Positions 3,398-63,180 of a stretch of 64,000 nt of DNA are shown here, piece by piece. Each line of letters begins with the position of its first letter. Within the stretch, counting starts at the first letter, position 1. This DNA is from a virus: the IMG/VR virus record IMGVR_UViG_3300032163_000001, positions 110,249 through 174,248 of that record; one strand, written 5' to 3'. A model generated the notes under the pieces. It worked only from the letters and a program-made list of their open reading frames with translations, searched no databases and had not been told where the DNA came from. A program made the translations under genes and the position numbers.

Positions 3398-3428
3398 GGG
3401 GAGGTATGTAATTCCTCCCCTTCTATTA
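3398..3428 (+). terminator. Rho-independent terminator (GGGGGAGG-loop-CCTCCCC + T-rich tail)
   Basis: Perfect 7-8 bp GC stem immediately after the stop of the OmpA-like gene, followed by TTCTATT. Confidence 0.65.
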
Positions 3429-3456
3429 CATATATTAATTTAATGAAAAGGAGGTG
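3424..3456 (+). promoter_or_regulatory. Conserved bipartite motif copy 1: TACATATATTAATT-N5-GAAAAGGAGGTGAAA (putative phage promoter/leader element)
   Basis: One of five near-identical copies (3424, 6208, 30686, 36068, 63148), all on + strand upstream of + strand genes. Confidence 0.5.
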
Positions 3457-3508
3457 AAACCAATAGGTAAATTTTAAACATTAAACATTTATCAAAAAAG
3501 GAGGGAGT

Positions 3509-4288
3509 ATGTTAAGATACTTTGCATTATTTCTAGTTGTTGGATTAATGTTGGGTTGTGTTCATGTGGAAGAAATAACAAAAGAAACTCCGCAGAGAAT
3601 TCTAAGTCCTATAGCGCTGGGAGAAAAGCCTCCAGAGATAGTTGTTGGTTCTAAATTTCTTTATAAAAGGACTAACGCTATTACTGGAGAAAGTATGATA
3701 TTTATTCAATCAATTAAGAATAAAGTTGATTGGATGGGTTCTCCTGCATATGTAGTAGAACTCATGAAAGAAGAAGCACTTCCCAATAAAGGCTACTCAA
3801 CATTTAAGTATGCTTTAATTGATAGTAACTTAAATATGTTAGCTGCTATGAATAAAGAAGGTCAACTTATCGAGGCTGTATCTGGAAATGTTTCAATTGT
3901 AACACCAAAGGGAACTACTATTGATGGACGATCTATAGTAGTCTATAATTGGCCACTTAAAGTCGGTGACGCCTTTTCAGTAACTTATGAGACCTTCAAC
4001 AAATCAGCTAATCAGACTGTAAAAAATACTGACCAAGTAAAAGTTGAGCAGAAAACCATGATTCGGAATTCTAATATTGGTTCTTGGTTAGCATATAAAA
4101 TTCGGCACACCGCTCCTGGGATGATTGAGACTCGTTACTATTCACCAGATCTTGGACTTGAAATTAGACAAGAAGTTAACCAGACAATTGACAATCCTCA
4201 AGGTGCGGGAGTATTTGTAGTTGATATGATTGGTTACTCAATTCCAGGAGTTGGCGAGAAAGGTGAGAAAATCAAACTTCTTAAATAA
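3509..4288 (+). CDS. Putative lipoprotein (lipobox LMLGC)
   Basis: SD AAAAAGGAGGG. N-terminus MLRYFALFLVVGLMLGCVHV has an L-x-G-C lipobox. Confidence 0.55.
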   Translation: MLRYFALFLVVGLMLGCVHVEEITKETPQRILSPIALGEKPPEIVVGSKFLYKRTNAITGESMIFIQSIKNKVDWMGSPAYVVELMKEEALPNKGYSTFKYALIDSNLNMLAAMNKEGQLIEAVSGNVSIVTPKGTTIDGRSIVVYNWPLKVGDAFSVTYETFNKSANQTVKNTDQVKVEQKTMIRNSNIGSWLAYKIRHTAPGMIETRYYSPDLGLEIRQEVNQTIDNPQGAGVFVVDMIGYSIPGVGEKGEKIKLLK

Positions 4289-4289
4289 A

Positions 4290-4500
4290 TACACCCATGG
4301 CTACGCCGGCTGAGGAGAGCCACCTCTAATCGGGCTATGGGTTATATGTCAACTAGAATGTGGTCAGCTGAGAGTAATCCCAGAAAGTTCTAGTTGACGA
4401 TACCATAATAGTCCTATAGACAGTAACTATTCCCTCCTCAAGGTAGACTCAACTCCGCCTTCGAAAGGTCTAGTAGTTACTGCCTATTTTATAAAGATCA
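4290..4500 (+). ncRNA. Structured, GC-richer intergenic element with nested perfect inverted repeats (candidate small RNA or multi-hairpin regulatory region)
   Basis: ACCCATGGC...GCTATGGGT stem enclosing GGCT-gaggag-AGCC. Perfect 11-bp GTCAACTAGAA...TTCTAGTTGAC inverted repeat. No ORF. GC clearly above flanks. Confidence 0.3.
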
Positions 4501-4517
4501 AAGAAGGGGGTGTTTAT

Positions 4518-4709
4518 ATGACTGACAAGGAAAAACTGGTAGGGATACGACAAGCATTGAAAGACATAATTGCCTATCCCAAAAAAGGGGAATCTCGTCG
4601 AACAAGAGACGGTTATCCTTCTGAAATTATTCATGACAAATTTGCGTATGACCGTATTGTGAAATCGTATCGTGATGCACTTAAAAAGGTTCTTCATCAA
4701 TACAAATAA
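4518..4709 (+). CDS. Hypothetical small basic protein
   Basis: SD AAGAAGGGGG. 63-aa ORF. Confidence 0.4.
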   Translation: MTDKEKLVGIRQALKDIIAYPKKGESRRTRDGYPSEIIHDKFAYDRIVKSYRDALKKVLHQYK

Positions 4710-4765
4710 CATCTAAACGGAGGAACCGCATTTTTTTCTAAAATAATATAAATCAAGGAGAAATT

Positions 4766-5161
4766 ATGAGACGTACGAGAATCAAAACTTTTACAATCTC
4801 TGAAATCTTAGACAATATTGATCTTTGTAAAGATAGTATGATATTAGATGAGTTTTCTGTCAATCTAACTCCTAGATTTCTAACTTTTAAAGTAGATGGA
4901 ATAAAATGTCATCACTGCGGATTAGAGGGTAGTTTCTTCTCTTTGGATAAATTTCAGATGGACAAATCTCCTCACTTAAATCTCTATGCTATTAAAGATG
5001 GAAAAGAAGTTTTAATGACATCTGATCATATTATACCGAAATCAAAAGGAGGTAGTAACGGTATAAGTAATAGGCAGTGCCTTTGTCATAAATGTAATGA
5101 GAAGAAAGATCCTGCTGTAAACAAGAAGGGAGAAAAAGATGGAGAAAGATCACGAGTTTAG
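4766..5161 (+). CDS. HNH endonuclease (small, free-standing)
   Basis: CHHCG...DHIIPKSKGGSNGISNRQCLCHKCNEKK is an HNH motif with Zn-binding Cys pairs. SD AAGGAGA. Confidence 0.7.
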   Translation: MRRTRIKTFTISEILDNIDLCKDSMILDEFSVNLTPRFLTFKVDGIKCHHCGLEGSFFSLDKFQMDKSPHLNLYAIKDGKEVLMTSDHIIPKSKGGSNGISNRQCLCHKCNEKKDPAVNKKGEKDGERSRV

Positions 5162-5366
5162 AAATTTATCTACTAATCACAATGTCATTATTTTAAAGTC
5201 GAATTCAAGTATATGTCATTCTAGTTGTCCTTGGAAACGCATGCTAGGTTTTTACTGTTATTTGTTTAATCGTAAGTTAGAAATTAATAATAATGTGGGT
5301 CCATATACAAACCGCTGTTTTGAATGTATTAAGATGGAAAAAAAGAAAGAGAGAATAGTACTATAG
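5139..5366 (+). CDS. Hypothetical Cys-rich small protein (weak)
   Basis: ORF with SD-like AAGGGAG. Overlaps the previous gene end. Low complexity. Confidence 0.25.
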   Translation: MEKDHEFRNLSTNHNVIILKSNSSICHSSCPWKRMLGFYCYLFNRKLEINNNVGPYTNRCFECIKMEKKKERIVL

Positions 5367-5381
5367 AAAGGGAGATGAACG

Positions 5382-5897
5382 ATGCAAAAAGAAGCAGAGG
5401 AGAAAGAATTGGAGAAAGAATTAGAGTTACTAATGAAAGAGGTAAAAACGGTAGTGGATTTTTTCCAAACAAAAACTGGAGAAAAATTGATGAAGATTCT
5501 TCTAGAAAAAACTGAACCAGAAGGGAGAACAAAAGAGTGTCCAAGCATTGATGAAATGTTAGTAGTATCTAAACAGTCCCATGAACGAGTTTATGAAGTT
5601 CTTAAAGATTTTGATTTTAAAGATATGAATTTATTACCAGATCCGCCAAGTTCTCCACTCTTACAAAATCCTCCGCTATTTAGACATATCGCAACTTGCT
5701 ACCATTGTACAATGTGGTTATCTGCTTATAGTAGTCCAACTTCTATTAAAATCCTAGGGGATCTTAAGAAACAATTTAAACCTTCTGAAATAAATAAAGT
5801 TAAAATTATTCTAAGACTTACTAAGAAAATGCAGAATCAAGCCATAGATCTTTTACTTAAAAAGGCAAAAGAAGAAAAAGAAGGAGATAAAAAATGA
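5382..5897 (+). CDS. Hypothetical protein
   Basis: SD AAAGGGAG. 171-aa ORF. Confidence 0.45.
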   Translation: MQKEAEEKELEKELELLMKEVKTVVDFFQTKTGEKLMKILLEKTEPEGRTKECPSIDEMLVVSKQSHERVYEVLKDFDFKDMNLLPDPPSSPLLQNPPLFRHIATCYHCTMWLSAYSSPTSIKILGDLKKQFKPSEINKVKIILRLTKKMQNQAIDLLLKKAKEEKEGDKK

Positions 5898-6157
5898 AAA
5901 AAGTTAGTGTATCTTCTGCACCATGGGGTGATCCATATCCGTGTGGTGATTTAACAGTTGTACGCATTGGTGGGAAAGTAGTAGGTACTACTGTTGGTGG
6001 AGACCCAATAGAAATTAAACAACTTGCTAAAAAGTCCTATGAACTGGGTTTAAAGGATGGTAGAAAAGAAGATAAACAAAATATCAAATCAGAAGATTGT
6101 ACAGGTGCTGCCAAGTGTATAAAATCTTACGAGAAGTTAACACAACCTAAAAAATAA
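5894..6157 (+). CDS. Hypothetical protein
   Basis: SD AAGGAGA. ATGA start/stop overlap with upstream gene. Confidence 0.45.
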   Translation: MKKVSVSSAPWGDPYPCGDLTVVRIGGKVVGTTVGGDPIEIKQLAKKSYELGLKDGRKEDKQNIKSEDCTGAAKCIKSYEKLTQPKK

Positions 6158-6159
6158 GT

Positions 6160-6207
6160 ATTTAGTTTAATTTAGTTTAAACTAAACTATTTAGTTTAAG
6201 TTCTCTT
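6160..6207. repeat. Direct and palindromic repeats of TTTAGTTTAA, including the perfect palindrome TTTAGTTTAAACTAAA (candidate operator/terminator)
   Basis: Three or more copies of TTTAGTTTAA within 45 nt. The 16-nt unit is self-complementary. Confidence 0.4.
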
Positions 6208-6242
6208 GATTTACATATATTAATTTTTGAAAGGAGGAACTA
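6208..6242 (+). promoter_or_regulatory. Conserved bipartite motif copy 2: TACATATATTAATT-N5-GAAAGGAGGAAC
   Basis: See copy 1. Here the GGAGG also serves as SD for ATG 6243. Confidence 0.5.
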
Positions 6243-6437: not shown

Positions 6438-6461
6438 TTTATTGAGAGAAGGGAGAATATC

Positions 6462-7151: not shown

Positions 7152-7206
7152 AAAAAATGAAAGGAGGTATAAATATCGAAAAATTAAAGTAAGGAGGGTA
7201 TAGAAC

Positions 7207-7908: not shown

Positions 7909-7953
7909 GAAGGAGGGTGAACTCAAAATTTCTTTTAGAAGGAGGGGTGTGAC

Positions 7954-9482: not shown

Positions 9483-10577
9483 CTAACACGGTAATTTATT
9501 TATAATCTCTTTATTTATTTTTTGTAATAAGAGTTTCCATTCATCTCTGTTAGAGTTAGTTTTAGCATGAGTAGAATGATTTAACCAGATTAGATTTTCT
9601 CTTGAGTCGTTTTGTTTGTTATAGTCTATGTGATGCAGGTGAGCTTCATCTGTTAACAACTCTTCTGTAATTGGATCTATGTTGTTTTGTTCTTGTTTGA
9701 TTTGACTTCGAAAATCTATGTTGAAGAATTTTTCTGTGTAGGGTGCAAATCTTTGTTCTCTATCTTCTATCCATCGATAGTTGTTTGGTCCAGTTCTTTT
9801 TTCTATAACTTCTGGAATTAGTAGTGGACTTTTATACCCATATTTCTCAAACACCTTTTCTTCAGACTTCTTTCTAACTTCAGGGTTAGACATAGCATGT
9901 TTAACTCCATATCTTTCTAAGTTAGTATTTTCTCTTCTCTCTTTAAACTCTTCAACTTGAGAAGGATTTTCTACTCCATATTTTTGAATACAAGTTTCTT
10001 TCTTCTTTTCTTTAATTTTAGATTCTCTTCCCGGATGTCCTTCTTCATAGTTCTTTTCCCAAGTATTTAAACACCTTTCCATAATATCAGGATTTGACAT
10101 CGCGTGTTTAACTCCATATCTTTCTAGATTAGTATTTTCTCTTTTCTTCTTAAATTCTTCAACCTGAGATGCATTTTTAACTCCATATTTCTCTAAAAAT
10201 GTTTGTTTACTCTTTTCTCTGATTTCTCTCCTCTTCATCGCATTATCCACACCATAGCGTTCTAAGTTCGTTCTTTTTGATTTTAAAGGATTGTTATAGG
10301 CGGGAGTTCCATATTTCTTTATTTTTGCTTCTTTCACTAGATTTTTATGAAATTCACTTTTCTGTACACATTTCCCATGGTATTTAAAGTATCCTCTTTC
10401 CATACAATCGAAGTTAGTAGCCTTTTTGCAAACTTCACAAAAACCTTCGTCATCTTTTTTTAAATATAAATCATAATATTCTTGAACTTTACTATGAAGT
10501 TTTTGAATATGCGTAGATAAGCTTCTTAACAATTCAAAATTCTTGTTACAAATTCTACATACTTTTTCACTAGACAT
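9483..10577 (-). CDS. HNH homing endonuclease with tandem YGV-repeat DNA-binding modules
   Basis: C-terminal HHIDYNKQNDSRENLIWLNHSTH is an HNH motif. Three or more repeats of ExYGVxNxSQVEEFK..RENTNLERYGVKHAMSNP. N-terminal Cys cluster. Confidence 0.65.
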   Translation of the reverse strand: MSSEKVCRICNKNFELLRSLSTHIQKLHSKVQEYYDLYLKKDDEGFCEVCKKATNFDCMERGYFKYHGKCVQKSEFHKNLVKEAKIKKYGTPAYNNPLKSKRTNLERYGVDNAMKRREIREKSKQTFLEKYGVKNASQVEEFKKKRENTNLERYGVKHAMSNPDIMERCLNTWEKNYEEGHPGRESKIKEKKKETCIQKYGVENPSQVEEFKERRENTNLERYGVKHAMSNPEVRKKSEEKVFEKYGYKSPLLIPEVIEKRTGPNNYRWIEDREQRFAPYTEKFFNIDFRSQIKQEQNNIDPITEELLTDEAHLHHIDYNKQNDSRENLIWLNHSTHAKTNSNRDEWKLLLQKINKEIINKLPC

Positions 10578-10671
10578 CGAAAAAAATACCTCTTTACTAT
10601 AGATTTTATTATTTGTTCTATAGTAAAGAGGTTGTAACTAACTAGGGTAGTAGAAATCTATAAGTTATTGA

Positions 10672-12651: not shown

Positions 12652-12752
12652 TGCTTTTTCCTTTTTTTTCTAATTGAATTTTTATATTCTAATTAGAGAT
12701 TCCCTTACTTTCTACTATTCTATAAGACTCCTTTAGTAATTGAGTTTCTTTC

Positions 12753-14678: not shown

Positions 14679-14886
14679 TTACTCTTCTCCTTTTTAGAAG
14701 ATGTATAATATTCTGGATTTAAACTAAATCGTTTAGAATCCTTCTATCCTATTTAAGTATATGTTCTTTATACTTTTGACAAACAAAAACTGTTTTAGAA
14801 ATAGACTAAAAACACCAATAAAACGGGTAAAAAACAATTTATAATGGAACAAATATGAAATAAAGATTCCAAGGAAAAAAACCTAT

Positions 14887-24461: not shown

Positions 24462-25100
24462 TTAACCTTCTCCTCTATACGGAAGTATTTGAACTGAATT
24501 TATAGCCGTATAGTTAAACATATTTTCCACAAGGTAAACTTCATAACAACATTCTAGAACAGATGATGGAGTTGATAATAAAGTTTCATTATCATATAAA
24601 CTAAAAGAGTTATTTATCTTAAGATCTAAATATAAATAAACCATTTTTGATAGTTGAGTTGATAAAGAATTATAGTCAATATCAAGAATGATACTAGCAG
24701 TTGAATCAGCAGTTCTATATTCAAGAAGTTTATCAAGTATTTGTAAGTCATTAATATTAGTTGCATCTGTACTTAAAGAAAAAATATTTGTGTTACAAAC
24801 TGGAGGATCGTCGTCTGCTATAAAATATCTACCAGTAACTGGATAAAGAAGTAATCTGGTTTTTATAATATTAGTCCATGTTCTCGTTGCATCTTCTCTA
24901 TACAAATATCTATATGAAGTATAAATTCTAGGCCAATTATCATCGAACAGCAATCGAATGAAACTTCTATTTTCAGTAAAAAGAGAATCTGGTAATGAAA
25001 CTGGATATGGAACACCAGATTTATTTAGAGCGGTTCTCTTCAAAAAATTAGAGAAATAATACTGCACTTCACCAACTAGTGTATTACTATTTGGAGGCAT
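24462..25100 (-). CDS. Hypothetical structural protein
   Basis: 212-aa ORF. Confidence 0.4.
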   Translation of the reverse strand: MPPNSNTLVGEVQYYFSNFLKRTALNKSGVPYPVSLPDSLFTENRSFIRLLFDDNWPRIYTSYRYLYREDATRTWTNIIKTRLLLYPVTGRYFIADDDPPVCNTNIFSLSTDATNINDLQILDKLLEYRTADSTASIILDIDYNSLSTQLSKMVYLYLDLKINNSFSLYDNETLLSTPSSVLECCYEVYLVENMFNYTAINSVQILPYRGEG

Positions 25101-25899
25101 TAACTTCTTCTCCTACATTTAAGATTTTATTTGCACGTCTGGTTTCCCATTGTTTCTTATAAAATTCGATTGGACGATTTTTTGCTGATATACTCATATT
25201 TTTTCTAGTTTCTTCAGATTTTGGTTTTCCTTTAAGTGCTTTACTAATTTTTTCTCTAATCTGAATGGAACGAGGTCCTGTACGTTTTCCTTTTCTTGCT
25301 TTACTCTTTTTCTCCTTTACTTCTAGTCTACCGGATGTTTCAATTCCTGAGCACTTATTGCACATCTTACTTAATTGCAGTACTTCTCTTTCTCCACATA
25401 TAGGACATAGTTTTCTATTAGTTGTAATACCACCTTTCCAATTTGGATGATTCTCTCTAGAAAAATTTGGTCTTTTCTTTCCTCTCCAAACTTTACTACT
25501 TCTTTCTCTATCTTCTTCAGTAAAAAGATATCCAGAAGAACCTTCACCGCCATCAGTTTGGTTAGTTAAAGGACCTGATTTTAAATCAGATCTACCAATC
25601 ACAGAAATAAGAGACCTTTCTAGTTCAAAAGCTTGTTTTTCATTTACGTTATCTTTGAATTTTATAACAATAGGTTCTAGCCCTTCTTGTATAATTTTTT
25701 TAATCTTGTTAAACTTATGAAAATTTCCAGAATAACATTTATTATAGTTTTTAGCTTCTTTCAAATGAGCTAAATATTGATTCTTTTTTCCTTTTCCTAC
25801 ATAAAATGGTTCATAGTCAAATGAGTATTTATTATAATTATATTTTCCATATTTTCTTGGATCTAAATACATATAAACATAGAAATTATTTAGATCCAT
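25087..25899 (-). CDS. GIY-YIG homing endonuclease (Seg/I-TevI-like)
   Basis: N-terminal FYVYMYLDP...PFYVGKGKKNQYLAH is the classic GIY-YIG motif. NHPNWKGG and CPICGE Zn-finger/NUMOD-like C-terminal half. Confidence 0.8.
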   Translation of the reverse strand: MDLNNFYVYMYLDPRKYGKYNYNKYSFDYEPFYVGKGKKNQYLAHLKEAKNYNKCYSGNFHKFNKIKKIIQEGLEPIVIKFKDNVNEKQAFELERSLISVIGRSDLKSGPLTNQTDGGEGSSGYLFTEEDRERSSKVWRGKKRPNFSRENHPNWKGGITTNRKLCPICGEREVLQLSKMCNKCSGIETSGRLEVKEKKSKARKGKRTGPRSIQIREKISKALKGKPKSEETRKNMSISAKNRPIEFYKKQWETRRANKILNVGEEVNASK

Positions 25900-26482: not shown

Positions 26483-26588
26483 TTTATATTTGTTCCAAAA
26501 CTTTAAACAAGTTTAGATTAGACAAAAAATAAGTGGCCTACCTTTTTAGGTTCTTTAAAAAGTAAGCCACTTTTACAATTTAGATCTT

Positions 26589-30566: not shown

Positions 30567-30685
30567 TTAACAAAGATCTCCTTTACTAAAAGATTTTTCC
30601 AAGAAACCAAACCATTTTGTTTTTGTTCTAGTCTAATTCTTAAAAAGTTGCGAAAGTTTCTTTTTTAAGAAAGAGTCTTGATTAC

Positions 30686-30718
30686 TATATATATTAATTC
30701 TTGGAAAGGAGGAACACC
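30686..30718 (+). promoter_or_regulatory. Conserved bipartite motif copy 3: TATATATATTAATT-N5-GAAAGGAGGAACACC, placed 55 nt before the MVP-like gene's own SD
   Basis: See copy 1. No ORF follows the internal GGAGG here, so GGAGG is part of the element rather than an SD. Confidence 0.5.
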
Positions 30719-30773
30719 GTATTACTAATTTTTTTACACTCTAAAACTAAACTAAAAGAAGGAGGAAAAAACT

Positions 30774-36017: not shown

Positions 36018-36067
36018 ACTTTCTCCTAATATTGAACAAATAACCATTATTCTTATGTTGTCTACTA

Positions 36068-36100
36068 CATATATTAATTATTTGAAAGGAGGTGAAAGTA
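36068..36100 (+). promoter_or_regulatory. Conserved bipartite motif copy 4: TACATATATTAATT-N6-GAAAGGAGGTGAAAGT
   Basis: See copy 1. Confidence 0.5.
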
Positions 36101-36131: not shown

Positions 36132-36671
36132 ATGAAACATCTTGGTCATATTATTGTTCAAATCTTTAAAGTGGCTGTAGCATTGTTCCTAATCTTGGCG
36201 ATATTTTCTGTGGTCCATGATTATCTAAACTTTTGTGTTCCTGTTCAATTTCAAGACGAACTAGAGAATACTAAAGTTCTTTTAACAAAGATGAAAGTGG
36301 ATCCAAAGAAACTTAATGAGTTTTCAATAGCTGTAAAAACAGCAAGTCGTCTAACTGGATTTGCAGAAGAACTTCTAATAGCTCTGGTCTATACGGAATC
36401 GAGATGGATAACAACCGCTTGTTCTCCTAAGGGCTATAAAGGATTAGCACAAATTCCATATGATTTATGGGATCCTGATATTAATGTTTTGACTGGAGCT
36501 AAAGAACTAGCGAAAAAACTGATTCAATCAAAAGGTGATCTAAAACAAGCTCTAATGCGATACAAAGGTTATAAAGATTTAGACTGTAAGGAGGGAAAAG
36601 AAGATGCAGAAAGAGTTATTAGAATCGCAAGAGATCTTAGAAATTCGAAAGTCCGCGGCGGAGAAATCTGA
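36132..36671 (+). CDS. Lytic transglycosylase (SLT-domain) with N-terminal TM anchor; endolysin or virion-associated lysin candidate (start set to ATG 36132)
   Basis: ALVYTESRWITTACSPKGYKGLAQIP matches the SLT E.S....A.S..GA.GLMQI motif. N-terminal hydrophobic IFKVAVALFLILAIFSVV. SD AAGGAGGAG. Confidence 0.65.
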   Translation: MKHLGHIIVQIFKVAVALFLILAIFSVVHDYLNFCVPVQFQDELENTKVLLTKMKVDPKKLNEFSIAVKTASRLTGFAEELLIALVYTESRWITTACSPKGYKGLAQIPYDLWDPDINVLTGAKELAKKLIQSKGDLKQALMRYKGYKDLDCKEGKEDAERVIRIARDLRNSKVRGGEI

Positions 36672-36888: not shown

Positions 36889-36899
36889 AGTAAATTTTC

Positions 36900-37375
36900 G
36901 TAATGGTGAGGCCCATAATTGTTGATGTTTGGAAATGCTACTCCGCCACAGGGCACCCAAGATCTATTGGGGTAGACACCTTGGACTCGAAAAGTCCGTC
37001 GAGCTTCACCATTACGATTTGATCCGAATAAAGAATGAGAGGATGCCTGGTAAATGTATTATCAAATAAGTATGGGTTGATACCCTCCTGCGGGCATCAT
37101 CTCTAGAAAAGAAAGGCAGTGCGGTTTGGGGTGAGTATACAAACCTGCGTTTGAATCAGGAGACAGACGCACAAAACCAAGGAGGAAGGAACAGTAGGGA
37201 AAGCCGAATGCGAGATTATACCGGGAGATGACCCTGGCGGGCTCTGCATTAAATACTGCCTTGGGTGTTCTGGCCCACTCATTAGACCAGTCAAGACTCC
37301 TTAATTGAGAAAGACACCTATCGGTGAAAATCCGGTCACTGCCTTGTATTTATTTTATTTTTAGAGAAGAAAGGA
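36900..37375 (+). ncRNA. GC-rich, ORF-free island of about 480 nt; candidate structured RNA of unknown class
   Basis: GC roughly 45% against about 31% in the flanks. No ORF of 60 aa or more on + strand. Multiple short GC stems (CCTG..CAGG, GGACTCGAAAAGTCC). Confidence 0.3.
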
Positions 37376-37382
37376 GGAAGCA

Positions 37383-37640: not shown

Positions 37641-37754
37641 ACAAGTAAAGGTAGAAAGCAGATAGGTTGGCACCTAATATGGAAAATAAACTTTCTTCCA
37701 GAAAGGTTAAAAAACGCTGTAGAATCTACTATCAATAAAAGCAATCTACCTGTC

Positions 37755-37807
37755 GTTAAACAAGTAGAGGACGCGGAATTAGATACCTCTACTTGTTTAA
37801 CTTTTTC
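37755..37807 (+). terminator. Rho-independent terminator: perfect 16-bp stem GTTAAACAAGTAGAGG / CCTCTACTTGTTTAAC + TTTTT
   Basis: Read directly. 15-nt loop and T5 tail. Confidence 0.65.
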
Positions 37808-37823
37808 AGGGAGTTTCTAAAGT

Positions 37824-39386: not shown

Positions 39387-39460
39387 TCAGGAGTCGTCTA
39401 ATTTAGGCAGGACATTTGACTTTGAATCAAAAAATAAAGGTTCGATTCCTTTCTCCTGAA
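39387..39460 (+). tRNA. tRNA-Gln (anticodon UUG)
   Basis: Acceptor TCAGGAG/CTCCTGA perfect 7 bp. D-arm GTCT..GGAC. Anticodon arm TTTGA-CTTTGAA-TCAAA (U33, anticodon TTG, A37). T-arm AAAGG-TTCGATT-CCTTT. No encoded CCA. Confidence 0.75.
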
Positions 39461-39539
39461 TAGTGGTAGGTTATTAGAAGTTGATGTTCCTACCTCTTAT
39501 TATAGAACAAATAACTAAATTCTATGATAGGAGAGAAAA

Positions 39540-40160
39540 ATGGATATATGCAGTTATGGTTGTGGATTAGAAGCAAAATATACTTTAAAAAACGGAAAGT
39601 TTTGTTGCGAACGAAGTTGTAATCAATGCCCTGAAGTAAGAAAGAAGAATAGTCTTTCTTTAAAAACAAGTTCTCATTATATTAGATTTAACCCAAGTAA
39701 AATAATGGATACTTGTACTTTTTGTAATAAATCAATTCCATATCCTTCAAAAAAAGGACACGAAAAGAGCTGTTATTTAAATCCAAACAACTTAAAATTA
39801 TGTATAGTTTGTGAAAAACCCATTAAGAACTATAAGTTTAATATAACATGTTCCCATATATGTGCAAATGGACACTTTAAACAAAATACAAAAAATGGAA
39901 TTCATTGTGATGAATACAGAAGAATCTGTTTTAAGTATCACAAAAAAGAATGCATTATATGTGGTGAAAGTAATATTGTACATGCTCACCATTTAGATAA
40001 AAATAAAGAAAATAACTCTCCCAAAAACTTAATTCCCTTATGTCCTACTCACCATTATTATATGCATTGTAAACTTAAAGAATTAATAATCAATAAAATC
40101 GAGTCTTATTTAAGAGAGTGGGAAAACTCAATGTTACTCTCAACCAAAATCATAATATAA
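39540..40160 (+). CDS. HNH homing endonuclease with N-terminal C-x-YGCG zinc-finger module
   Basis: ICGESNIVHAHHLDKNKENNSPKNLIPLCPTHH is an HNH motif. N-terminal MDICSYGCGLEAKYTLKNGKFCCERSCNQCPEVRKK is shared with the 48857-49615 gene. Confidence 0.65.
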   Translation: MDICSYGCGLEAKYTLKNGKFCCERSCNQCPEVRKKNSLSLKTSSHYIRFNPSKIMDTCTFCNKSIPYPSKKGHEKSCYLNPNNLKLCIVCEKPIKNYKFNITCSHICANGHFKQNTKNGIHCDEYRRICFKYHKKECIICGESNIVHAHHLDKNKENNSPKNLIPLCPTHHYYMHCKLKELIINKIESYLREWENSMLLSTKIII

Positions 40161-40602: not shown

Positions 40603-40890
40603 ATGGCTAAATTTATAGACTTTGTTGATAAGAAATTTATATGTGATAACTGCAAAAAAGTTATTCAAGGAAAAGAAATTGTCTTAGAATTAGCTCCAAC
40701 TAATTTTGATATATTAACTCCTCTTCACCCACTCATTTTTATTGATAAAGATGGGATTATCAAAGGAGGTTCTAAATTTGCAGACGGGTCTATTGGGGAC
40801 CAAATATTGAACTGTCCAAAATGTAATTACCCTCATTTATATGGATTTACACCATATGAAGAGAAAACATTAAAAGAGATGGGTCGGTAA
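40603..40890 (+). CDS. Small zinc-ribbon protein
   Basis: CDNCKK...CPKCNYPH. The stop codon overlaps the tRNA 5' end. Confidence 0.4.
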   Translation: MAKFIDFVDKKFICDNCKKVIQGKEIVLELAPTNFDILTPLHPLIFIDKDGIIKGGSKFADGSIGDQILNCPKCNYPHLYGFTPYEEKTLKEMGR

Positions 40891-40957
40891 GCTTAACTGG
40901 TTAAACTGCTGGACTCCAAATCCAGTCTTCGGGGTTCGAATCCTCGCCGGCCTGCCA
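40881..40957 (+). tRNA. tRNA-Trp (anticodon CCA)
   Basis: Anticodon arm CTGGA-CTCCAAA-TCCAG. T-arm CGGGG-TTCGAAT-CCTCG. Acceptor GGGTCGG/CCGGCCT (2 G-U pairs). Discriminator G and encoded CCA. D-arm is atypical. Confidence 0.65.
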
Positions 40958-52311: not shown

Positions 52312-52467
52312 AATATCGTTCCTTAACCCATTTTTTCAGAATTCTATATTTGGTTTTTGTTCACAAAAGAAACGAAAATCTTATCACAGAGATAACGATA
52401 AAAAAGAGGGATCTCCTTTTTATAGAAAGATCCCTCTTGTTTAAAACTATATTTTTATTACTTATTC

Positions 52468-56978: not shown

Positions 56979-57653
56979 CTATGTGAAATTATAGACAATA
57001 TGCATTCTATCCGAAATGCAAAAGTTATACTTTTCTGCCATGTCTAAAACAACTTCAGAATTACCAATTAGTTCATCTCTAGTCTTTCCTTGTGGCATAA
57101 GATAAACTCTAAGGTTTGGAAAATTTAGCACCTTCAAGAAATCTAAATATTCATAAATCAACTCTTTATCTTCACATACTAATTTAATATAAACTCGTTC
57201 ATCATTCATTATTTCTTTACTTAGTTTCATATAGAAACCAAGATCTTCGTTTGTAAATATTTTAGGAGACAATATAAATCGAACCTTTTTCACTGGATCT
57301 ACTTTCTTAATTAAACCAACTAAATTACAACCATTAGTCTCTACATTATAAATTGGAGCATTTACACCATTTATTAAAGATATTGTCTGATTTAAATTTA
57401 AGTTAAAAGTTGGTTCTCCACCTGTAATCAATAACCCACAATTATGTTCATCTACAATATTCTGGATATCTCTTAGAGCATAATCTGCTTCATTAGAAAT
57501 CCTCATCTTAACTAAAGTATCACAAAATGGACATGGTGTTCCTGCAGATACTCTTGAGCACCTCTTAAATCTAAGAATTATCATTGGTTGTCCTACATCT
57601 TTTCCTTCTCCTTGAAAACTTAGAAAATTTTCTATAAGTCTAACCTTTGACAT
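56979..57653 (-). CDS. queE: 7-carboxy-7-deazaguanine synthase (QueE, radical SAM)
   Basis: N-terminal ENFLSFQGEGKDVGQPMIILRFKRC matches QueE EMFQTLQGEGYFTGVPAIFIRLQGC. Cys cluster C-x8-C-x2-C then CDT. Confidence 0.7.
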   Translation of the reverse strand: MSKVRLIENFLSFQGEGKDVGQPMIILRFKRCSRVSAGTPCPFCDTLVKMRISNEADYALRDIQNIVDEHNCGLLITGGEPTFNLNLNQTISLINGVNAPIYNVETNGCNLVGLIKKVDPVKKVRFILSPKIFTNEDLGFYMKLSKEIMNDERVYIKLVCEDKELIYEYLDFLKVLNFPNLRVYLMPQGKTRDELIGNSEVVLDMAEKYNFCISDRMHIVYNFT

Positions 57654-57666: not shown

Positions 57667-60600
57667 TCAAAACTTTAAGATGTTTTCATTTCTTCCTATT
57701 AACGGTTCTAGCATCAGTTTATATCTGTCAACCCATGAAAACTTAATCATTTCTTTTATATCTATATTGTAATAATTTGGTAGAGAAAGTTCTTCATCCG
57801 GTAAACATATAACATCTAACTTCTTATTTTTAGATAAAAATTCTTTACTGTATCGTTCTAAAACTTCTTTAGGAGCTATTTGATCATTTATTCCATTTAT
57901 CTTAAATAAATATCCTTTCGAACCATGAGCAAATATTTGATATTCTAAAACATTCCAGTTCAAAAAACCAATTACGTTTTGCGGAATCCTTTTATAATCA
58001 TCTAAATCTTTAGTAAAAGATGCTGGTCTAGCTACACTTTTTTCTCCTCCAGTAACTCTCTGAAAAAATTCTGTTTCTTTTGAATCAATAAATTTTTTAG
58101 TTGCAAACATAGAAAACTTTTCCGACTTCAAAATTAAATCTAAAAGTTCTTTTAGACATTCTTTTGTATAACTTGGATAATCGGATCTTTTAGTATCTAA
58201 ACCCATACTTTTAATTTCATCTGTTTCTGTCCCTTCTTCAGAGATAATGTATATAGAATAATGTTTTTTACTTAAAAATAATCCTCTCTTAATAACTAGT
58301 TCATTCTTTAAATCTAATCTATTATATTGTAAACTAACATTATGCTTTTCAACAAGTTTCTCTACAACATCTTTATTTAAATAAGATCGAATTTGATCAC
58401 ATAAAACTTTTACTTCTGCAACTTTCTCATTTTCATTCTTTCCTTTAATTAAAGAATCTAGACTTAAAAATACAGAATCAGTATCACCAGTAATAACATG
58501 TTCAATCTTTCTATCTAATTCTCCAAACATTTCTTTTTTATTTAATCTAGTTTGTTCAATGTCTTTTTTGACTCTTAGAGATTCAACAAATACGTCAGAA
58601 GAAACAATAGTTGATTTTAAAAATTCTTGACCACTTAAAGTAATACTTATTGCGCAATCTATATTATAAAATCTATAAGCTGCATTACCAAGAACTCCAT
58701 ACATAGCATTCGCTAAAACTTTAAAAACTAACTGTCTAACTTCATACAATTCTTCTTCAGATTTATTCTTTGCTTGTTTTGCTTCGAACATTTTCTTCTT
58801 AACTACTTTTCTAGATTGTAAAATATATTCTAATATTTCACTATAAAATGATAATTCGGTTCTATGAGGTTTAAAGAAACATCCATTTATTGTATATGTT
58901 AAATTAGATTCTATAATTTTCTCTATCAATTGTTCTCTAGTAATTTCCATTTCTTGAAGAGTTAAGTCAGGATCTAATATAACAGAAAGTTTCTCTGGTA
59001 ATTTTTCTGGTTGATAAATAAGATCATACCCAAGTGTATGGTCCTTAAGCTTCATAACAATTGTATTAAAACCAACATTAAATGTTTGAATTATACTAGG
59101 ATATAGTGATGTAAAATCAAAATCAACTATCCATTCATGTAAACCAACCTTAGGTTCTTTTACATAAGCTCCTGCAAAAGCTTCATCTTTTAACTGAACA
59201 TTTGCATTTCTAGAAGCATACCCTTTGGATTTTAACCAAGAAGATACTAAAGAATCTAATTGACCCATTGCATTTAGCGCTGATTGAAACGTACACTTAC
59301 ATATCTTTTTTAACTCACTAGCTAAAGAAATATGTTTAACTTTATCTTCTAATTTAACTGTTAGTAAAACGTCTCTTCTATTGTATTCAATCGCTTTATT
59401 TACATCATCTCTAAACATCTGGGAGAAGTTTGATCCACTATCTAATTTACTTTCTTTTAGTTCTATCTGTGCTATCGTTCCAAGTCTATAGTTTTCTTTC
59501 TTTGTAGGTGTAAAAGTCCTGTATAAAGTTAACTGGTCAAGAATTATAAAACCATAAATATCTGCGTAACCCTTATCTCCATCAATATTTACTTCTCCAA
59601 GTTTAGATAGAAGATCTTTGTTTATACCTAATTTTTCACATCGATTAGTTAAATATGGAATATCAAACCATGAAAGATTCCAACCAGTTATAACGTCTGG
59701 ATCTATTACTTTAATATCCTTTATGAATGTAGTGAGCAAATCTTTTTCACTTTTAAACACAAGAATTTCATCTGATGCTTTTATAGCTTGAAGAGAAGTA
59801 TCTTTTAAAAGAATTCTATTATCCATAACATACGTTACAATTTTATCTTTATAACCATAACTAATCATACAAACTGGATCTTTTGCTTCAGCAATATTAG
59901 GGAACTCTTTCTTAATACTATACACTTCTATATCTAAAAACATTATATTAAGATCCAAATTCTCTTCTTCTGGTTTTTGGATATAATAGTCATTAGAATG
60001 TTTAGTTACTAATTTGAAATCTCCATCATAAGTAACTTCATGGTCAAGTCCATACTTTTCTCTGTATAAAACTTTCATCTGAAATAGTTCATCATACTTC
60101 ATTACTTTTTTAGCTAAAACACCATCAGGTACTTTATAACAATAATAATCATCATTCTCCCTATGAAAAACTTTCTTACTATCTTTATCTTTAAAGATAT
60201 AAAGAACTTGGTTACTTCTATGTAAATATTGAATATCTAAAAGTTTGTAGTCTTTAGTGTAAAACTTATCTTCTATTTTATAAAAATGAATTCCCTTCTT
60301 TTCTAACTTTTCTACTTTCATAGAAGAAGATACAATTCCAGGAATACCCAAATATGCAGATACATATCTCATATCTTGATCAAACTTTTCTTCAAAACTT
60401 CTATTCCTAGAAACATATGAAGGATGGACCGTAAAAAATACGTCATGTTCTTTCCATCGAAACATCTTTCCTCTGAAGCTTGTTATATGAGCATCTTTAT
60501 CAAAAATCTCAAATGCTTTTCCTGCAGTCCCTCCCATTAGAACAATTAGCTTGGCATTACTACACTGTTCTATGATCTTAAAGCAATTTTCTTTACAAAG

Positions 60601-60909
60601 ATCTATAGTTCGATCACTTGGATTTATAGTTGTTTTTCTTTCTTTATCTAATGTCTGACAAAGAACTACGTTCGTCAAAAGATACTTAACACTGTTAAGT
60701 TTATACATACTAAAATATTTTCGAAATAATTGTCCAGTTTTTCCTATAAGTGGAACTTCTTTTTCAACCTCATCTTTCCCTGGATTCTCTGCAACAAAAA
60801 TTACTTTTATTTGATCAAAAGATTCTGCATTTGTTTCAAGTATACAAGACTTCTCTCCAAATAATTCACATGAAGAACAATCAGCAAAACTATTTTTAAT
60901 ACTAAACAT
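57667..60909 (-). CDS. Family B DNA polymerase with N-terminal family-4 uracil-DNA-glycosylase-like domain
   Basis: ITGDTDSVF (Pol C motif YGDTDS). DIEVYS exo I. N-terminal roughly 170 aa carry CSSCELFGEKSC, AENPGKDE (UDG4 GE.PG..ED) and VHPSYV (HPS). Confidence 0.8.
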   Translation of the reverse strand: MFSIKNSFADCSSCELFGEKSCILETNAESFDQIKVIFVAENPGKDEVEKEVPLIGKTGQLFRKYFSMYKLNSVKYLLTNVVLCQTLDKERKTTINPSDRTIDLCKENCFKIIEQCSNAKLIVLMGGTAGKAFEIFDKDAHITSFRGKMFRWKEHDVFFTVHPSYVSRNRSFEEKFDQDMRYVSAYLGIPGIVSSSMKVEKLEKKGIHFYKIEDKFYTKDYKLLDIQYLHRSNQVLYIFKDKDSKKVFHRENDDYYCYKVPDGVLAKKVMKYDELFQMKVLYREKYGLDHEVTYDGDFKLVTKHSNDYYIQKPEEENLDLNIMFLDIEVYSIKKEFPNIAEAKDPVCMISYGYKDKIVTYVMDNRILLKDTSLQAIKASDEILVFKSEKDLLTTFIKDIKVIDPDVITGWNLSWFDIPYLTNRCEKLGINKDLLSKLGEVNIDGDKGYADIYGFIILDQLTLYRTFTPTKKENYRLGTIAQIELKESKLDSGSNFSQMFRDDVNKAIEYNRRDVLLTVKLEDKVKHISLASELKKICKCTFQSALNAMGQLDSLVSSWLKSKGYASRNANVQLKDEAFAGAYVKEPKVGLHEWIVDFDFTSLYPSIIQTFNVGFNTIVMKLKDHTLGYDLIYQPEKLPEKLSVILDPDLTLQEMEITREQLIEKIIESNLTYTINGCFFKPHRTELSFYSEILEYILQSRKVVKKKMFEAKQAKNKSEEELYEVRQLVFKVLANAMYGVLGNAAYRFYNIDCAISITLSGQEFLKSTIVSSDVFVESLRVKKDIEQTRLNKKEMFGELDRKIEHVITGDTDSVFLSLDSLIKGKNENEKVAEVKVLCDQIRSYLNKDVVEKLVEKHNVSLQYNRLDLKNELVIKRGLFLSKKHYSIYIISEEGTETDEIKSMGLDTKRSDYPSYTKECLKELLDLILKSEKFSMFATKKFIDSKETEFFQRVTGGEKSVARPASFTKDLDDYKRIPQNVIGFLNWNVLEYQIFAHGSKGYLFKINGINDQIAPKEVLERYSKEFLSKNKKLDVICLPDEELSLPNYYNIDIKEMIKFSWVDRYKLMLEPLIGRNENILKF

Positions 60910-60912
60910 TAT

Positions 60913-61440
60913 TTATCCCCTAATAATTGAGAAATGTTCAGATATGAAACTTTTGATTTTTATTTGAATTCCTTCTTCTTTCTTCTTCTTTAAGTTCTTA
61001 ATTGCCTTAGCTTTTTCTGGTTTCAAAAGTCCAAGAGAGTCATAGATAGATTTTTTAGAATCTTCATCTTCTCTATCTATAATACTAGACAACAAATTTA
61101 TATCACAACCTTTTAATGTAGGAAATTTCTTCCTCAAAGCTTGAAATAAATCACTATTTTTTTTCGAACTAAAAAATGACAAATTATTTCTTCTAACTCT
61201 AAAGTCTATAATACACTTTTTGATAAACTTAAATAGATCTTCTTTCTCTAGATAAAACACTCCAACATTATTAAAATACTTATCTAAATAATGGTTAAGT
61301 TGTCCATACAACAAAAACATTGAAATAATTCTATTATTACTTATTGGAGAATTGTACTTTAAGAAAACTTCTTTTTGTGGAATTTCTGAAGTTCTACTCC
61401 CGTCAAACAACCATTGGTTAAAGACTTCGTATTCATTCAT
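60913..61440 (-). CDS. Hypothetical protein
   Basis: 175 aa. Confidence 0.4.
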   Translation of the reverse strand: MNEYEVFNQWLFDGSRTSEIPQKEVFLKYNSPISNNRIISMFLLYGQLNHYLDKYFNNVGVFYLEKEDLFKFIKKCIIDFRVRRNNLSFFSSKKNSDLFQALRKKFPTLKGCDINLLSSIIDREDEDSKKSIYDSLGLLKPEKAKAIKNLKKKKEEGIQIKIKSFISEHFSIIRG

Positions 61441-62374
61441 TACTCTCTTCTTTCATAATCCTTATTATATTGTTATAGAAATTATTAATAAGATCCTGAT
61501 TTAATAAGTTAGGAACTGTATCAAGAAAATCAATCCTTAATTCTGATCCTGCAGGGTATAAAAAAGGTTTTGGTAGTAACTCAGGATATGAGAACTTATC
61601 TGGAGCAATAACAGATGTGTTATTCATAACTGCTTCTAGAGCTTGATATCCAAATGTATCTTCATTAGTAGTGATTAATAAAACTTTTCCTTGCGATAGA
61701 AATTTATAATATTCTTTCCATGTTGAACATTCTTTTCTTACTATTTTAGTTTTCAAACTCTTCTCAATAAAACGTTCTAACCTTTTATTGACTTTCTGCC
61801 TACACGGTCTAGAAACCGAAATTATATCATATATCTTCTTTTCTTTAAACGTTTTAAAAGGGGGTTTTGGAAGACCTACAACTTCAGTATTTTTCCATCC
61901 TAGTTTTTCTTGGTGATATTTAGTTGCTACAAACACTTTTTTAAACAATTTTGAATGTCCAGTTTCTACTAACCATTTACTTTTTCTAACTGGAGCAAAA
62001 TAATCAAACGCATTTTTAGATGTTGCGTGACAGAACGCAAAACAATTTTTCATTGGTTTATGATACAAGACATTCGAAAACAAACCAGGAAAAGAAATAT
62101 CAGCTAAAAAGAGAATATCATCATTTTCTAATCTTATATTTAGAAACTGGTGAATTTGTTGATATTCAAAAGAAATAGATTGTTCAACTGGAGAAAATAA
62201 CCTTTTATCCCTATTATCTTCATAATCAGTAAGAGACTCTCCTAAAACAACAACTTCATCAAAATGTTTTATAAACTCTTTAAAAAATTCTCTATGCCAC
62301 CATTCTTGATATCTCATTTTAGCTGGAAACTGAGGAACAAAAATTATTCTGGACATATGATAAAGTTTCTCCAT
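61433..62374 (-). CDS. GT-B fold glycosyltransferase (GT4-like C-terminal E.FG...LEA motif)
   Basis: NEDTFGYQALEAVMNNTSVIAP. 313 aa. Confidence 0.55.
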   Translation of the reverse strand: MEKLYHMSRIIFVPQFPAKMRYQEWWHREFFKEFIKHFDEVVVLGESLTDYEDNRDKRLFSPVEQSISFEYQQIHQFLNIRLENDDILFLADISFPGLFSNVLYHKPMKNCFAFCHATSKNAFDYFAPVRKSKWLVETGHSKLFKKVFVATKYHQEKLGWKNTEVVGLPKPPFKTFKEKKIYDIISVSRPCRQKVNKRLERFIEKSLKTKIVRKECSTWKEYYKFLSQGKVLLITTNEDTFGYQALEAVMNNTSVIAPDKFSYPELLPKPFLYPAGSELRIDFLDTVPNLLNQDLINNFYNNIIRIMKEESNE

Positions 62375-62580
62375 TCTTCAGGAATACAATTACTTTTGAA
62401 TTCATTTGTAACAAACCAGTAGTTCTCTTTTTCGTTTAATGTTAGTTCAGTTAGTCCTTTAAATGTTTTAATTAATATTTTGTTACCAATTTCTTTAATT
62501 ACATCTAATTCAATATTGACTGGTCTAGTAAGCCAAGTTTCTACTTTCAACACTTTCTTTGAAGTTTTTAAGGATATCAT
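62344..62580 (-). CDS. Hypothetical small protein
   Basis: 78 aa. Confidence 0.35.
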   Translation of the reverse strand: MISLKTSKKVLKVETWLTRPVNIELDVIKEIGNKILIKTFKGLTELTLNEKENYWFVTNEFKSNCIPEEWRNFIICPE

Positions 62581-62597
62581 TGATCCTCCTTAATATC

Positions 62598-63095
62598 TTA
62601 TTTTACTAGCCACTTACACCGCCCTTCAAATAAGTAATATTTACCATCATTCGTCCACAAATCTTTTTGAGATGGATACACTTCATCTAACACTTCTTTC
62701 TTCTTCATCCAATGTTCAACTTCAAAACAATATGGTGCTTGCATATTTATTGAATAGAAAATAACATCAAGACCTGAACGAAGCATGCTTTCTCCTATTG
62801 CACCCCATCTTCTGTGTTGGTAATGACCAGCTTCAGTAGGGTCTGGAAAATAGAGAGTAGTTTTAGGGTTTATGAAAACTGGTGGGATTGAAGCTGTAAA
62901 GTACTGAGAAGTTACATTGTTAAACTTAGACTTAAGAGAAAGAGCTTCTTCTCTTCTAATTATATCAATATTAGTATCTGTATAAACTATACAAATACTT
63001 CTAGACTCATTTGATATGACTGAGAAACAACCAATTAGTTCATCATCAGCGTGGGGAGCCACAATCACAATTCTGTTATTTTCTTCTTTCACCAT
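62598..63095 (-). CDS. PIG-L/LmbE-family N-acetylglucosaminyl deacetylase
   Basis: IVIVAPHADDELIGCFSVI matches the PIG-L AHPDDE..G motif. 165 aa. Confidence 0.6.
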   Translation of the reverse strand: MVKEENNRIVIVAPHADDELIGCFSVISNESRSICIVYTDTNIDIIRREEALSLKSKFNNVTSQYFTASIPPVFINPKTTLYFPDPTEAGHYQHRRWGAIGESMLRSGLDVIFYSINMQAPYCFEVEHWMKKKEVLDEVYPSQKDLWTNDGKYYLFEGRCKWLVK

Positions 63096-63147
63096 TAATC
63101 TCCTTCCTTTATTTTATTCTAAAATTTTCAGTAACTATCGCACTAAC

Positions 63148-63180
63148 CATATATATTAATTACTGAGGAGGCAAACAATC
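63148..63180 (+). promoter_or_regulatory. Conserved bipartite motif copy 5: ACATATATATTAATT-N4-GAGGAGGCAAAC (divergent region)
   Basis: See copy 1. Confidence 0.45.

Follow-up and report, generated by a model that had tools for sequence, protein, structure and literature searches.

A recurrent AT-rich element as a candidate early promoter of an uncultured jumbo myovirus

The locus and the copies of the element

The 64,000-nt stretch of viral DNA analysed here (positions 110,249 to 174,248 of IMG/VR record IMGVR_UViG_3300032163_000001; hereafter the window) encodes tail sheath, tail-fibre-like, portal, protease and major capsid proteins and a DnaB-type helicase, together with a family B DNA polymerase (PolB) with an N-terminal UDG-like domain, a major-vault-protein-like (MVP-like) protein, an SLT transglycosylase and two tRNAs. 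Copies of a short AT-rich element followed by a GGAGG box (hereafter class A) recur upstream of its plus-strand genes, and the sequence, distribution and probable function of this element are the subject of this report. An earlier interpretation made from the letters of the window (the sequence-only reading) had described five near-identical copies of it as a conserved bipartite unit, and these five copies were recovered with small offsets (3427, 6212 and 36066 for the positions 3424, 6208 and 36068 given there).

The exact core shared by the copies, ATATATTAATT, has five exact matches in the window, all of them intergenic and on the plus strand; their 14-mers start at the first coordinates listed in Table 1. 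A GGAGG lies 3' of the core at each, and the composite pattern ATATATTAATT-N2-8-RRAGGAGG was found four times, as against 0.00 matches expected from 100 dinucleotide shuffles. The bipartite form in which the element had been written, TACATATATTAATT-N4-6-GAAAGGAGG, survived in part: the shared core is real, but in a search of the window the literal pattern fits the 36066 copy only, the other four deviating in that TAC is replaced by TAT or CAT, the spacer measures 3-5 nt, or the box reads GAGGAGG. The distance from core to GGAGG varies between 5 and 9 nt, which argues against a single rigid bipartite binding site.

The source contig (ENA ERZ27247924 k141_4250956; 111,530 bp) was fully reassembled from overlapping loci; whole-contig counts refer to it, and coordinates beyond the window are given as window-equivalent positions. 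A motif search of both of its strands identified ten exact core copies and one copy with a single mismatch (TACATATATTAATA, at 73880), all 11 of which lie on the plus strand, are intergenic and point at a plus-strand gene start 14-150 nt downstream. First-order Markov shuffles of the contig gave 0 exact and 0.8 one-mismatch matches. No core copy was found on the minus strand of the window or of the whole contig, in agreement with the earlier remark that the minus-strand structural genes lack the element. The copies are placed after terminator-like hairpins (e.g. 3397-3418) or in divergent intergenic regions, and the units downstream of the 11 copies consist of small open reading frames (ORFs) and accessory genes, with 0 copies preceding structural genes. 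Because the hairpin at 3397-3418 ends the preceding unit, copy 1 opens a new transcription unit; in the unit behind copy 2, a DnaQ-like exonuclease gene comes after the small Cys-rich gene.

Alignment of the contig copies defines a conserved block, aCTA(T/C)ATATATTAATTa, which may also be written aCTAtATATATTAATTa, with an AT-rich invariant block of 14-16 nt. The constrained part comprises cTA(T/C)ATATATTAATT, then 3-4 nt, then G(A). After the 14-mer of the 11 contig copies, the first G comes 3-4 nt (at most 6) further on, in a TGA context, with a run of purines behind it; over the first 12 nt, purines make up a fraction of 0.90 in this phage and 0.68 in its relatives, against a background of 0.50. 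No conservation was detected around -35 in the aligned contig copies, nor in 45 copies from the related phages described below. Beyond the core, flanks are common to pairs of copies (TCTTGATT..GGAGGAAC at 6212 and 30686; GGAGGTGAAA at 3427 and 36066).

A second motif, class B (GAACAAATA, usually followed by NN-AA; extended form (TTTTA)GAACAAATA-NN-AA), occurs on either strand 15-55 nt 5' of structural-block genes, homing-endonuclease genes and a few others. It stands back to back with class A in three divergent regions (-95/-54, 30628/30689 and 66339/66387), and in relatives a class B in reverse orientation (TTTGTTCT) is often found just 5' of class A. Weaker variants, TTAGAATA(A/T)A, in which AATA replaces AACA, are found 5' of the sheath gene and of the PolB/replication block. 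Since a class B motif also lies shortly 5' of copy 4 (Table 1), both promoter types precede the SLT gene.

Table 1. Positions in the window of class A copies, class B motifs and the hairpin adjoining copy 1 (SD, Shine-Dalgarno)
Feature	Position	Strand	Sequence	Context
Terminator-like hairpin	3397..3418	+	GGGGGAGG..CCTCC	Directly 5' of copy 1; closes preceding OmpA-domain gene unit
Copy 1 (class A)	3427..3454	+	TACATATATTAATT-taat-GAAAAGGAGG	Predicted start G at 3445; SD-like box orphan; 259-aa lipoprotein-like gene with own SD, ATG at 3509
Copy 2 (class A)	6212..6237	+	TACATATATTAATT-ttt-GAAAGGAGG	GGAGG is the real SD of a 64-aa Cys-rich gene (ATG 6243, 5 nt on); predicted leader 14 nt
Class B	10610..10618	-		32 nt 5' of DUF7487 homing-endonuclease-like gene (9483-10577)
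Class B-like variant	12683-12692	-		
Class B	14847..14855	+		31 nt 5' of metallophosphatase gene (14887)
Class B	26487..26495	-		28 nt 5' of 190-aa gene in structural block
Class B variant	30620..30628	-	GAACAAAAA	53 nt 5' of first minus-strand tail-fibre-like gene; back to back with copy 3
Copy 3 (class A)	30686..30712	+	TATATATATTAATT-ctt-GGAAAGGAGG	SD-like box orphan; MVP-like gene starts 30774 with own SD
Class B	36034..36042	+	GAACAAATA	AR9-late-like AACA element; 32 nt 5' of copy 4, before SLT gene
Copy 4 (class A)	36066..36092	+	TACATATATTAATT-attt-GAAAGGAGG	SD-like box orphan; SLT transglycosylase gene ATG at 36132
Class B	39505..39513	+		26 nt 5' of HNH endonuclease gene (39540)
Class B variant	52354..52362	-	GAACAAAAA	42 nt 5' of 83-aa gene in head module
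Class B-like variant	63113-63122	-	TTAGAATAAAATAAA	
Copy 5 (class A)	63148..63171	+	CATATATATTAATT-act-GAGGAGG	In divergent intergenic region; SD-like box orphan; 92-aa gene ATG at 63206

Several further features accompany these motifs. Immediately 5' of copy 2, TTTAGTTTAA forms three direct repeats (6158-6200), within which lies a perfect 16-bp palindrome, TTTAGTTTAAACTAAA; AAACTAAACTAAA is also present in the leader of copy 3 (30744-30756). The TTTAGTTTAA repeats may constitute a regulator binding site; they are absent at the other element copies and are therefore not a general operator. At copy 5, a sigma-70-like TTGTTT-17-TATATA on the minus strand (63096-63184) overlaps the element 5' of the replication-gene block, so that this block has two candidate signals, the other being the adjacent class-B-like variant TTAGAATAAAATAAA. 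Free-standing homing-endonuclease-type genes (DUF7487/DUF559, HNH and GIY-YIG) are located at 9483-10577 (minus strand), 4766-5161 (plus), 25087-25899 (minus), 39540-40160 (plus) and L329:7232-8104, several of them with their own class B motif directly 5'. The tRNA genes, Gln-TTG (39387-39460) and Trp-CCA (40881-40957), lie within a plus-strand block of accessory genes. The AT-rich plus-strand units also contain GC-rich non-coding stretches with internal complementarity (4289-4469, 36890-37102, 37283-37382 and 37641-37823), for which Rfam returned no match even at E<=0.1 and which may represent new non-coding RNAs or intron remnants.

Conservation among uncultured relatives and their RNA polymerase genes

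A scan of IMG/VR with the 15-mer CTATATATATTAATT returned at least 120 loci and, among the matches listed, 32 of 120 loci encode homologues (29-62% identity) of the sheath, PolB, baseplate, metallophosphatase and other proteins of this phage. The 45 unique copies present in at least 38 related uncultured-phage loci yield the consensus CTATATATATTAATTA.TGAa, in which the sequence 3' of the 15-mer was outside the search query and hence not selected by the search. These loci range in GC content from 0.23 to 0.42 and have 15-20 nt in common, although their proteins share just 40-60% identity with those of this phage. At such protein distances neutral intergenic DNA is expected to be unalignable; the recurrence of the same 15-20 nt in divergent phages therefore marks the element as a clade-wide signal. 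A Shine-Dalgarno (SD) sequence and start codon follow the element in 30 of 37 copies from relatives, mostly 39-58 nt further on.

The conservation does not extend to the GGAGG half. A GGAGG within 16 nt of the core occurs in 0 of the 45 copies from relatives, as against 8 of 11 in this phage, and this half is therefore peculiar to this phage and its close kin. Consistently, the literal bipartite pattern has eight unrelated single matches in IMG/VR and, with a single fitting copy in the window, it follows that the GGAGG half is not a clade-wide signal. The contention of the sequence-only reading that the whole unit is conserved is thus wrong at the level of the clade, where the AT-rich core and the start G(A) are what is kept. 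In one close relative (L033, with an MVP 87% identical), copy 3 is preserved in full, box included, and the several substitutions in its leader fall outside the element.

No match to cultured phages was obtained for the window by Megablast. The MVP-like gene (30774-33245, plus strand; MVP shoulder and vault repeat domains) has 6806 bacterial and phage homologues at E<=1e-50, and here it lies behind the predicted early-type promoter, whereas in other phages canonical sigma-70-type promoters precede MVP. Thus, in relatives with 38-50% identical MVPs (L009-L026), TTGATT-17-TGnTATAAT promoters are found 5' of MVP and the element is absent; it is likewise missing from relatives whose MVPs are 62-63% identical (L032, L034, L035). 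MVP is a poor guide to the phage backbone. In two of the latter relatives, L032 and L034, GC-rich structured intergenic blocks similar to those of the window occur on either side of MVP.

Beta- and beta'-like RNA polymerase (RNAP) genes are present among the loci found with the 15-mer. A beta' alignment with the NADFDGD motif retrieved 80 IMG/VR loci representing two paralogous types, of ~1000 aa and ~900 aa, and several of these loci occur on contigs that also hold the motif and proteins 40-60% identical to those of this phage, with both beta' paralogues represented (3300021511_000003, 3300028897_000348, 3300025713_000650, 3300001782_000005 and others). These beta' proteins are 24-28% identical to the annotated RNAP beta' of cultured phages with ~150-220-kb genomes, including Cobetia, Acinetobacter, Fusobacterium and Rhizobium phages. 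Several relatives have a class A copy ~2.1 kb 5' of the type-1 beta' operon, a placement that fits early expression of a non-virion polymerase. At a few loci class B precedes operons with type-2 beta', a weak association in which some of the class B matches are coding; matches at about position 4100 in type-2 beta' loci were discarded as a coding motif (SEQIFGP) and not promoters.

Two observations connect this phage to a type-2 gene. Five proteins identical to those of this phage are recorded on a 185,628-bp contig, and P0248, a 903-aa type-2 beta' protein (NADFDGD; Pfam Rpb1 domains), carries the same 185,628-bp longest-contig value and the same sources (jgi/lgn/ena) as these five, indirectly suggesting that P0248 belongs to this phage. 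The left end of our contig, extended by 1.7 kb, is syntenic with genes located ~3.5 kb 3' of the type-2 beta' gene in many relatives.

Comparison with known phage promoters and competing readings

The element is closely similar to the mapped early promoters of Bacillus jumbo phage AR9. Differential RNA sequencing (dRNA-seq) and primer extension defined AR9 early promoters as AAATATATATTAT-(6N)-G+1 and late promoters as AACA-(6N)-TA/G; early transcription is performed by the virion RNAP and does not depend on the host enzyme, early genes are often encoded on the strand opposite the late ones, and genes expressed continuously have promoters of both types (PMC5312081). The consensus of the 23 annotated AR9 promoters that we extracted (KU878088.1) is AAaTaTATATTATaat..tGa, and these share with the present element the ten-base ATATATATTA core, an AT-rich spacer, a T-G-A at the start site (predicted here) and the lack of a -35. 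Alike too are the dozens of directional copies per genome before early or presumed early operons, in many cases on the opposite strand to the virion genes, the promoter-to-ATG distance of ~40-55 nt (AR9 and this phage's relatives), and a companion motif starting with AACA, late in AR9 and a late candidate here, class B consisting of AACA, six bases and then AA instead of TA/G. Unlike in AR9, where the core continues as ...TTAT, it runs on here as ...TTAATTA, and the initial sequence transcribed from the predicted start would be a perfect SD.

AR9 and its relatives are also the phages that the virion proteins recall. The AR9 sheath, major capsid, portal, protease, DnaB and two PolB parts have homologues on the contig at 21-29% identity, and the best full-length sheath matches among cultured phages are to phiR1-37, AR9/PBS1 and Staphylococcus jumbo phages (24-30% identity). 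A diderm bacterium is the probable host, in contrast to the Bacillus host of AR9. One small baseplate-region protein of this phage has a homologue with 67% identity (L164; ENA ERZ25039519 contig_16283 = CAVXWK010000001.1, 2.97 Mb) in a mobile-element-rich region of a Thermodesulfobacteriota (Syntrophales-like) chromosome assembled from a metagenome; because of this homologue and the OmpA-domain and lipoprotein genes of the window, there are weak hints of a diderm host of deltaproteobacterial type.

The PolB gene (57667-60909, minus strand) encodes an N-terminal UDG-superfamily domain. Phages phiR1-37, AR9/PBS1 and S6 have deoxyuridine-containing DNA, and the AACA late promoter of AR9 is read only as template-strand uracil. 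Given the UDG-like domain, the sheath matches to deoxyuridine-DNA phages and this uracil-read AACA promoter, uracil-containing or otherwise modified DNA is a possibility for the clade. A QueE-like gene (56979-57653, minus strand), QueC at ~65.6-66.3 kb (L028:12372-13097) and a PTPS gene in relatives suggest genes for 7-deazaguanine (queuosine-precursor) DNA modification.

The resemblance reaches beyond AR9: according to a review, every jumbo phage that encodes an RNAP has an AT-rich ~10-nt motif near -10 before its early operons, ascribed to recognition by the virion RNAP (PMC7598289). In phiKZ-related jumbo phages such as phiKZ and phiR1-37, this motif is highly conserved and the transcription start site lies ~6 nt 3' of it (PMC7598289; PMC5312081). 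The present clade has in common with them the same architecture as predicted from sequence, the same bioinformatic route to discovery and beta/beta'-like RNAP genes; it differs in being uncultured and recovered from metagenomes only, and the motif sequence itself varies from phage to phage. Promoters of this kind are known, and finding them by motif over-representation is routine for RNAP-encoding jumbo phages.

We consider it probable that the element is an early promoter of an uncultured jumbo myovirus of the phiKZ/AR9 group, read by a virion-packaged multisubunit RNAP. The observations behind this assignment are the sequence, position, orientation and clade-wide conservation of the element, its likeness to mapped AR9 promoters and the RNAP genes of the clade. 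An early class is favoured because the element precedes units of small ORFs and accessory genes while the structural genes carry the AR9-late-like GAACAAATA, and a virion RNAP is favoured over a sigma factor or activator because no sigma-like gene was found and the clade encodes two beta' paralogues. Among the options raised by the sequence-only reading, a phage-specific promoter is thereby retained, whereas the middle or late timing and the sigma or activator attached to it give way to a most likely early class and a likely virion RNAP. By analogy with AR9 and phiKZ, a polymerase packaged in the virion and injected with the DNA would recognise the AT-rich cTA(T/C)ATATATTAATT, centred near -10, and would start 3-4 nt further on, at the G of TGA or the following A. 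It would transcribe the plus-strand lipoprotein, exonuclease, MVP and SLT cassettes, in units that would end at intrinsic terminators. The structural genes would use GAACAAATA-NN-AA as the counterpart of the AR9 late promoter read by the non-virion polymerase.

Several points weigh against this assignment. No RNAP gene was found on the 111.5-kb contig, which was walked end to end and covered by precomputed Pfam annotation and, within the window, by PHROGs and Pfam scans, and P0248 is linked to the phage through matching record values and not through DNA that was read. Between TATATATTA and the G, most copies have 6 nt where AR9 has 7 nt, a spacing seen here in three or four copies. The homologous proteins have low identity to those of AR9, and PolB is closest to T4-like polymerases. 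It is from the sequence that one predicts where transcription starts, which polymerase is used, when it acts and whether SD boxes without a start codon have a role. Such boxes could instead be relics of a duplicated promoter+SD cassette. Finally, TATATT matches the sigma-70 -10 hexamer TATAAT at 5 of 6 positions, which leaves room for a host promoter consisting of a -10 only.

This last alternative posits a strong early promoter read by the host RNAP and its primary sigma factor through an extended AT-rich -10 (TATATT) without a -35, similar to the promoters of hosts that have no -35 element. The G lies 7-8 nt beyond the hexamer, many phages rely on the host polymerase for their early genes, and the contig has no RNAP gene. 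AR9, however, uses the same core in Bacillus, where early transcription is independent of the host RNAP (PMC5312081). Conservation at -35 is absent, the TTGATT present in two copies being just 4-6 bp from TATATT, and a scan for sigma-70-type promoters showed no enrichment (78 found, 73.6 expected). The 15-20 invariant nt hold far more information than a host -10 hexamer, and their conservation across the protein divergence and GC range of the clade would be unexpected in presumably different hosts. The clade also encodes two RNAPs. We regard a host promoter as unlikely. Two other bacterial-type readings were ruled out: an SPO1 gp28-type promoter with AGGAGA as the -35, for which the spacing to downstream T-runs is inconsistent among copies, and a SigE/SigK-like CATA-type -10, since several copies have no CATA.

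The T4 late promoter, TATAAATA, is recognised by gp55, and a middle or late promoter read in a comparable way by a phage sigma factor or activator offers another account of an AT-rich -10-type element without a -35. Like T4 late promoters and early-promoter stem-loop cassettes, the element consists of a -10 region alone, recurs many times and was possibly spread as a cassette; TATATTAA agrees with the late box of T4 in 5 of its 8 positions, and PolB is distantly T4-like. This account nevertheless appears quite improbable. The element precedes no structural gene, those genes carrying GAACAAATA or GAATA(A/T)A, the small ORFs and accessory genes downstream of it are typical of early regions, and its conserved block is twice as long as that of T4. 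No sigma-, gp55-, gp33- or MotA/AsiA-like protein emerged when the window was scanned against PHROGs and Pfam, or from the precomputed Pfam annotation of the contig.

The Shine-Dalgarno box at the predicted transcript start

GGAGG is the ordinary SD of this phage, with 216 occurrences on both strands of the contig; on an 82-kb merged segment, 59 of 173 lie 3-12 nt before an ORF start. The extended form found in the element, GAAAGGAGG, is the full complement of the anti-SD at the 3' end of 16S rRNA, CCUCCUUUC (PMC10783764). The box is present in eight of the 11 contig copies, the other three being merely purine-rich at this position, and divides into four working SDs (copies at 6215, 67686, 70663 and 73883, with predicted leaders of 14-29 nt) and four orphans (copies at 3430, 30689, 36069 and 63151, with boxes at 3450, 30708, 36088 and 63167). 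No ATG, GTG or TTG lies 4-11 nt after the orphan boxes, the nearest candidates being TTG codons 12-14 nt away, and small leader ORFs behind them were ruled out on this ground. The genes behind the orphans have a second SD 40-70 nt further 3'. The claim that four of the five boxes in the window do not serve as SDs, the genes having their own downstream, is accordingly upheld, copy 2 being the only one with an adjacent ATG. In the leaders of two copies outside the window (66404-66483 and 67200-67349; L028), extra SD-like boxes are followed by an ATG 1-2 nt on and by very short ORFs (GGAGGTATG, 12 codons, and GGAGGTGATGATTAAATAG).

In T4 early mRNAs, GGAG is the target of the RegB nuclease. With four GGAGG boxes unused for initiation, an element acting on RNA, through RegB-like cleavage within GGAG or as a structured leader, could be envisaged, and both had been proposed in the sequence-only reading. 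We find this highly improbable: what the clade conserves is the AT-rich DNA block, GGAGG being missing from the 45 copies in related loci, and GGAGG here is a generic SD. Predicted leaders fold no better than shuffled sequences in 10 of 11 cases (z -0.6 to +1.0), the exception being the unit at 67185, whose 149-nt leader is predicted to fold with significant stability (z = -2.4). A leader hairpin was rejected because the predicted folds are not significant, and Rfam had no match at the element copies, reporting only the two tRNAs.

If the early-promoter assignment holds, transcripts would begin 5'-G(A)AAGGAGG, and the GGAGG half would form the first 9-10 nt of the transcript, outside the promoter proper. 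A start codon next to the box would then give an mRNA with a minimal leader, and the box would otherwise remain as an orphan 5'-terminal SD. Our best guess, a speculative one drawn by analogy with STAB-SD and standby sites, is that orphan boxes stabilise the mRNA or load ribosomes, a bound 30S subunit protecting or priming the early transcript. In PMC12970973 and PMC2358910, which cite Agaisse & Lereclus 1996 and Hue et al. 1995, polypurine SD-like sequences at mRNA 5' ends are reported to stabilise Bacillus transcripts. As outlined there, the STAB-SD of Bacillus thuringiensis cry3A is an SD-like polypurine sequence, complementary to the 3' end of 16S rRNA, that is placed at the mRNA 5' end or close to it, a long way from the start codon, and is unused for initiation. 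Four units here fit that description with a 5' end that is predicted. On the same accounts, the cry3A 5' end arises by processing of a longer transcript, unlike the predicted primary 5' end in this phage.

An equally simple alternative for the orphan boxes is that they are remnants of a cassette. A mobile or duplicated promoter+SD unit of ~30-40 nt, in which orphan GGAGG boxes are functionless relics, would be compatible with the early-promoter reading and would compete solely with the idea of a stabilising role. The four copies that abut a start codon, the flanks shared by pairs of copies and the lack of GGAGG at this position in relatives are what such a history would leave. On the other hand, 8 of 11 copies retain GGAGG intact; the orphan boxes complement the anti-SD perfectly or almost so, where unselected relics would be expected to decay; and the box is unchanged in the relative with the 87% identical MVP while the leader around it varies. 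We regard the cassette history as possible, with some doubt.

A tentative and rather unlikely proposal, which would go further than stabilisation, is that a perfect anti-SD complement became joined to the early promoter in this lineage. All transcripts from the injected polymerase would then begin 5'-GAAAGGAGG, and a 30S subunit could dock on their 5' ends within seconds of synthesis, leading to initiation with an ultra-short leader or, at the orphans, providing a 5' shield or standby platform. If true, the polymerase making these early mRNAs would be one not coupled to host ribosomes, and the platform could guard them from 5'-end-dependent decay or premature termination, as a viral counterpart of STAB-SD built into a promoter. 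The 5'-terminal SD box provides a testable example of a single unit that would combine a promoter with ribosome binding.

What is new here is the assignment of the element to a large uncultured clade, the presence of an AR9-like core despite ~25% protein identity, and a perfect SD fused to the predicted start. Because the AR9 core recurs almost unchanged at that protein distance, the promoter specificity of virion RNAPs appears to be ancient and slow to change. The 15-mer provides a cheap marker for such phages and also for their early genes, among which host-takeover functions may be sought. Two viral RNA polymerases, taken together with an early and a candidate late promoter, would assign a regulatory logic to a large family of giant phages known only from metagenomes.

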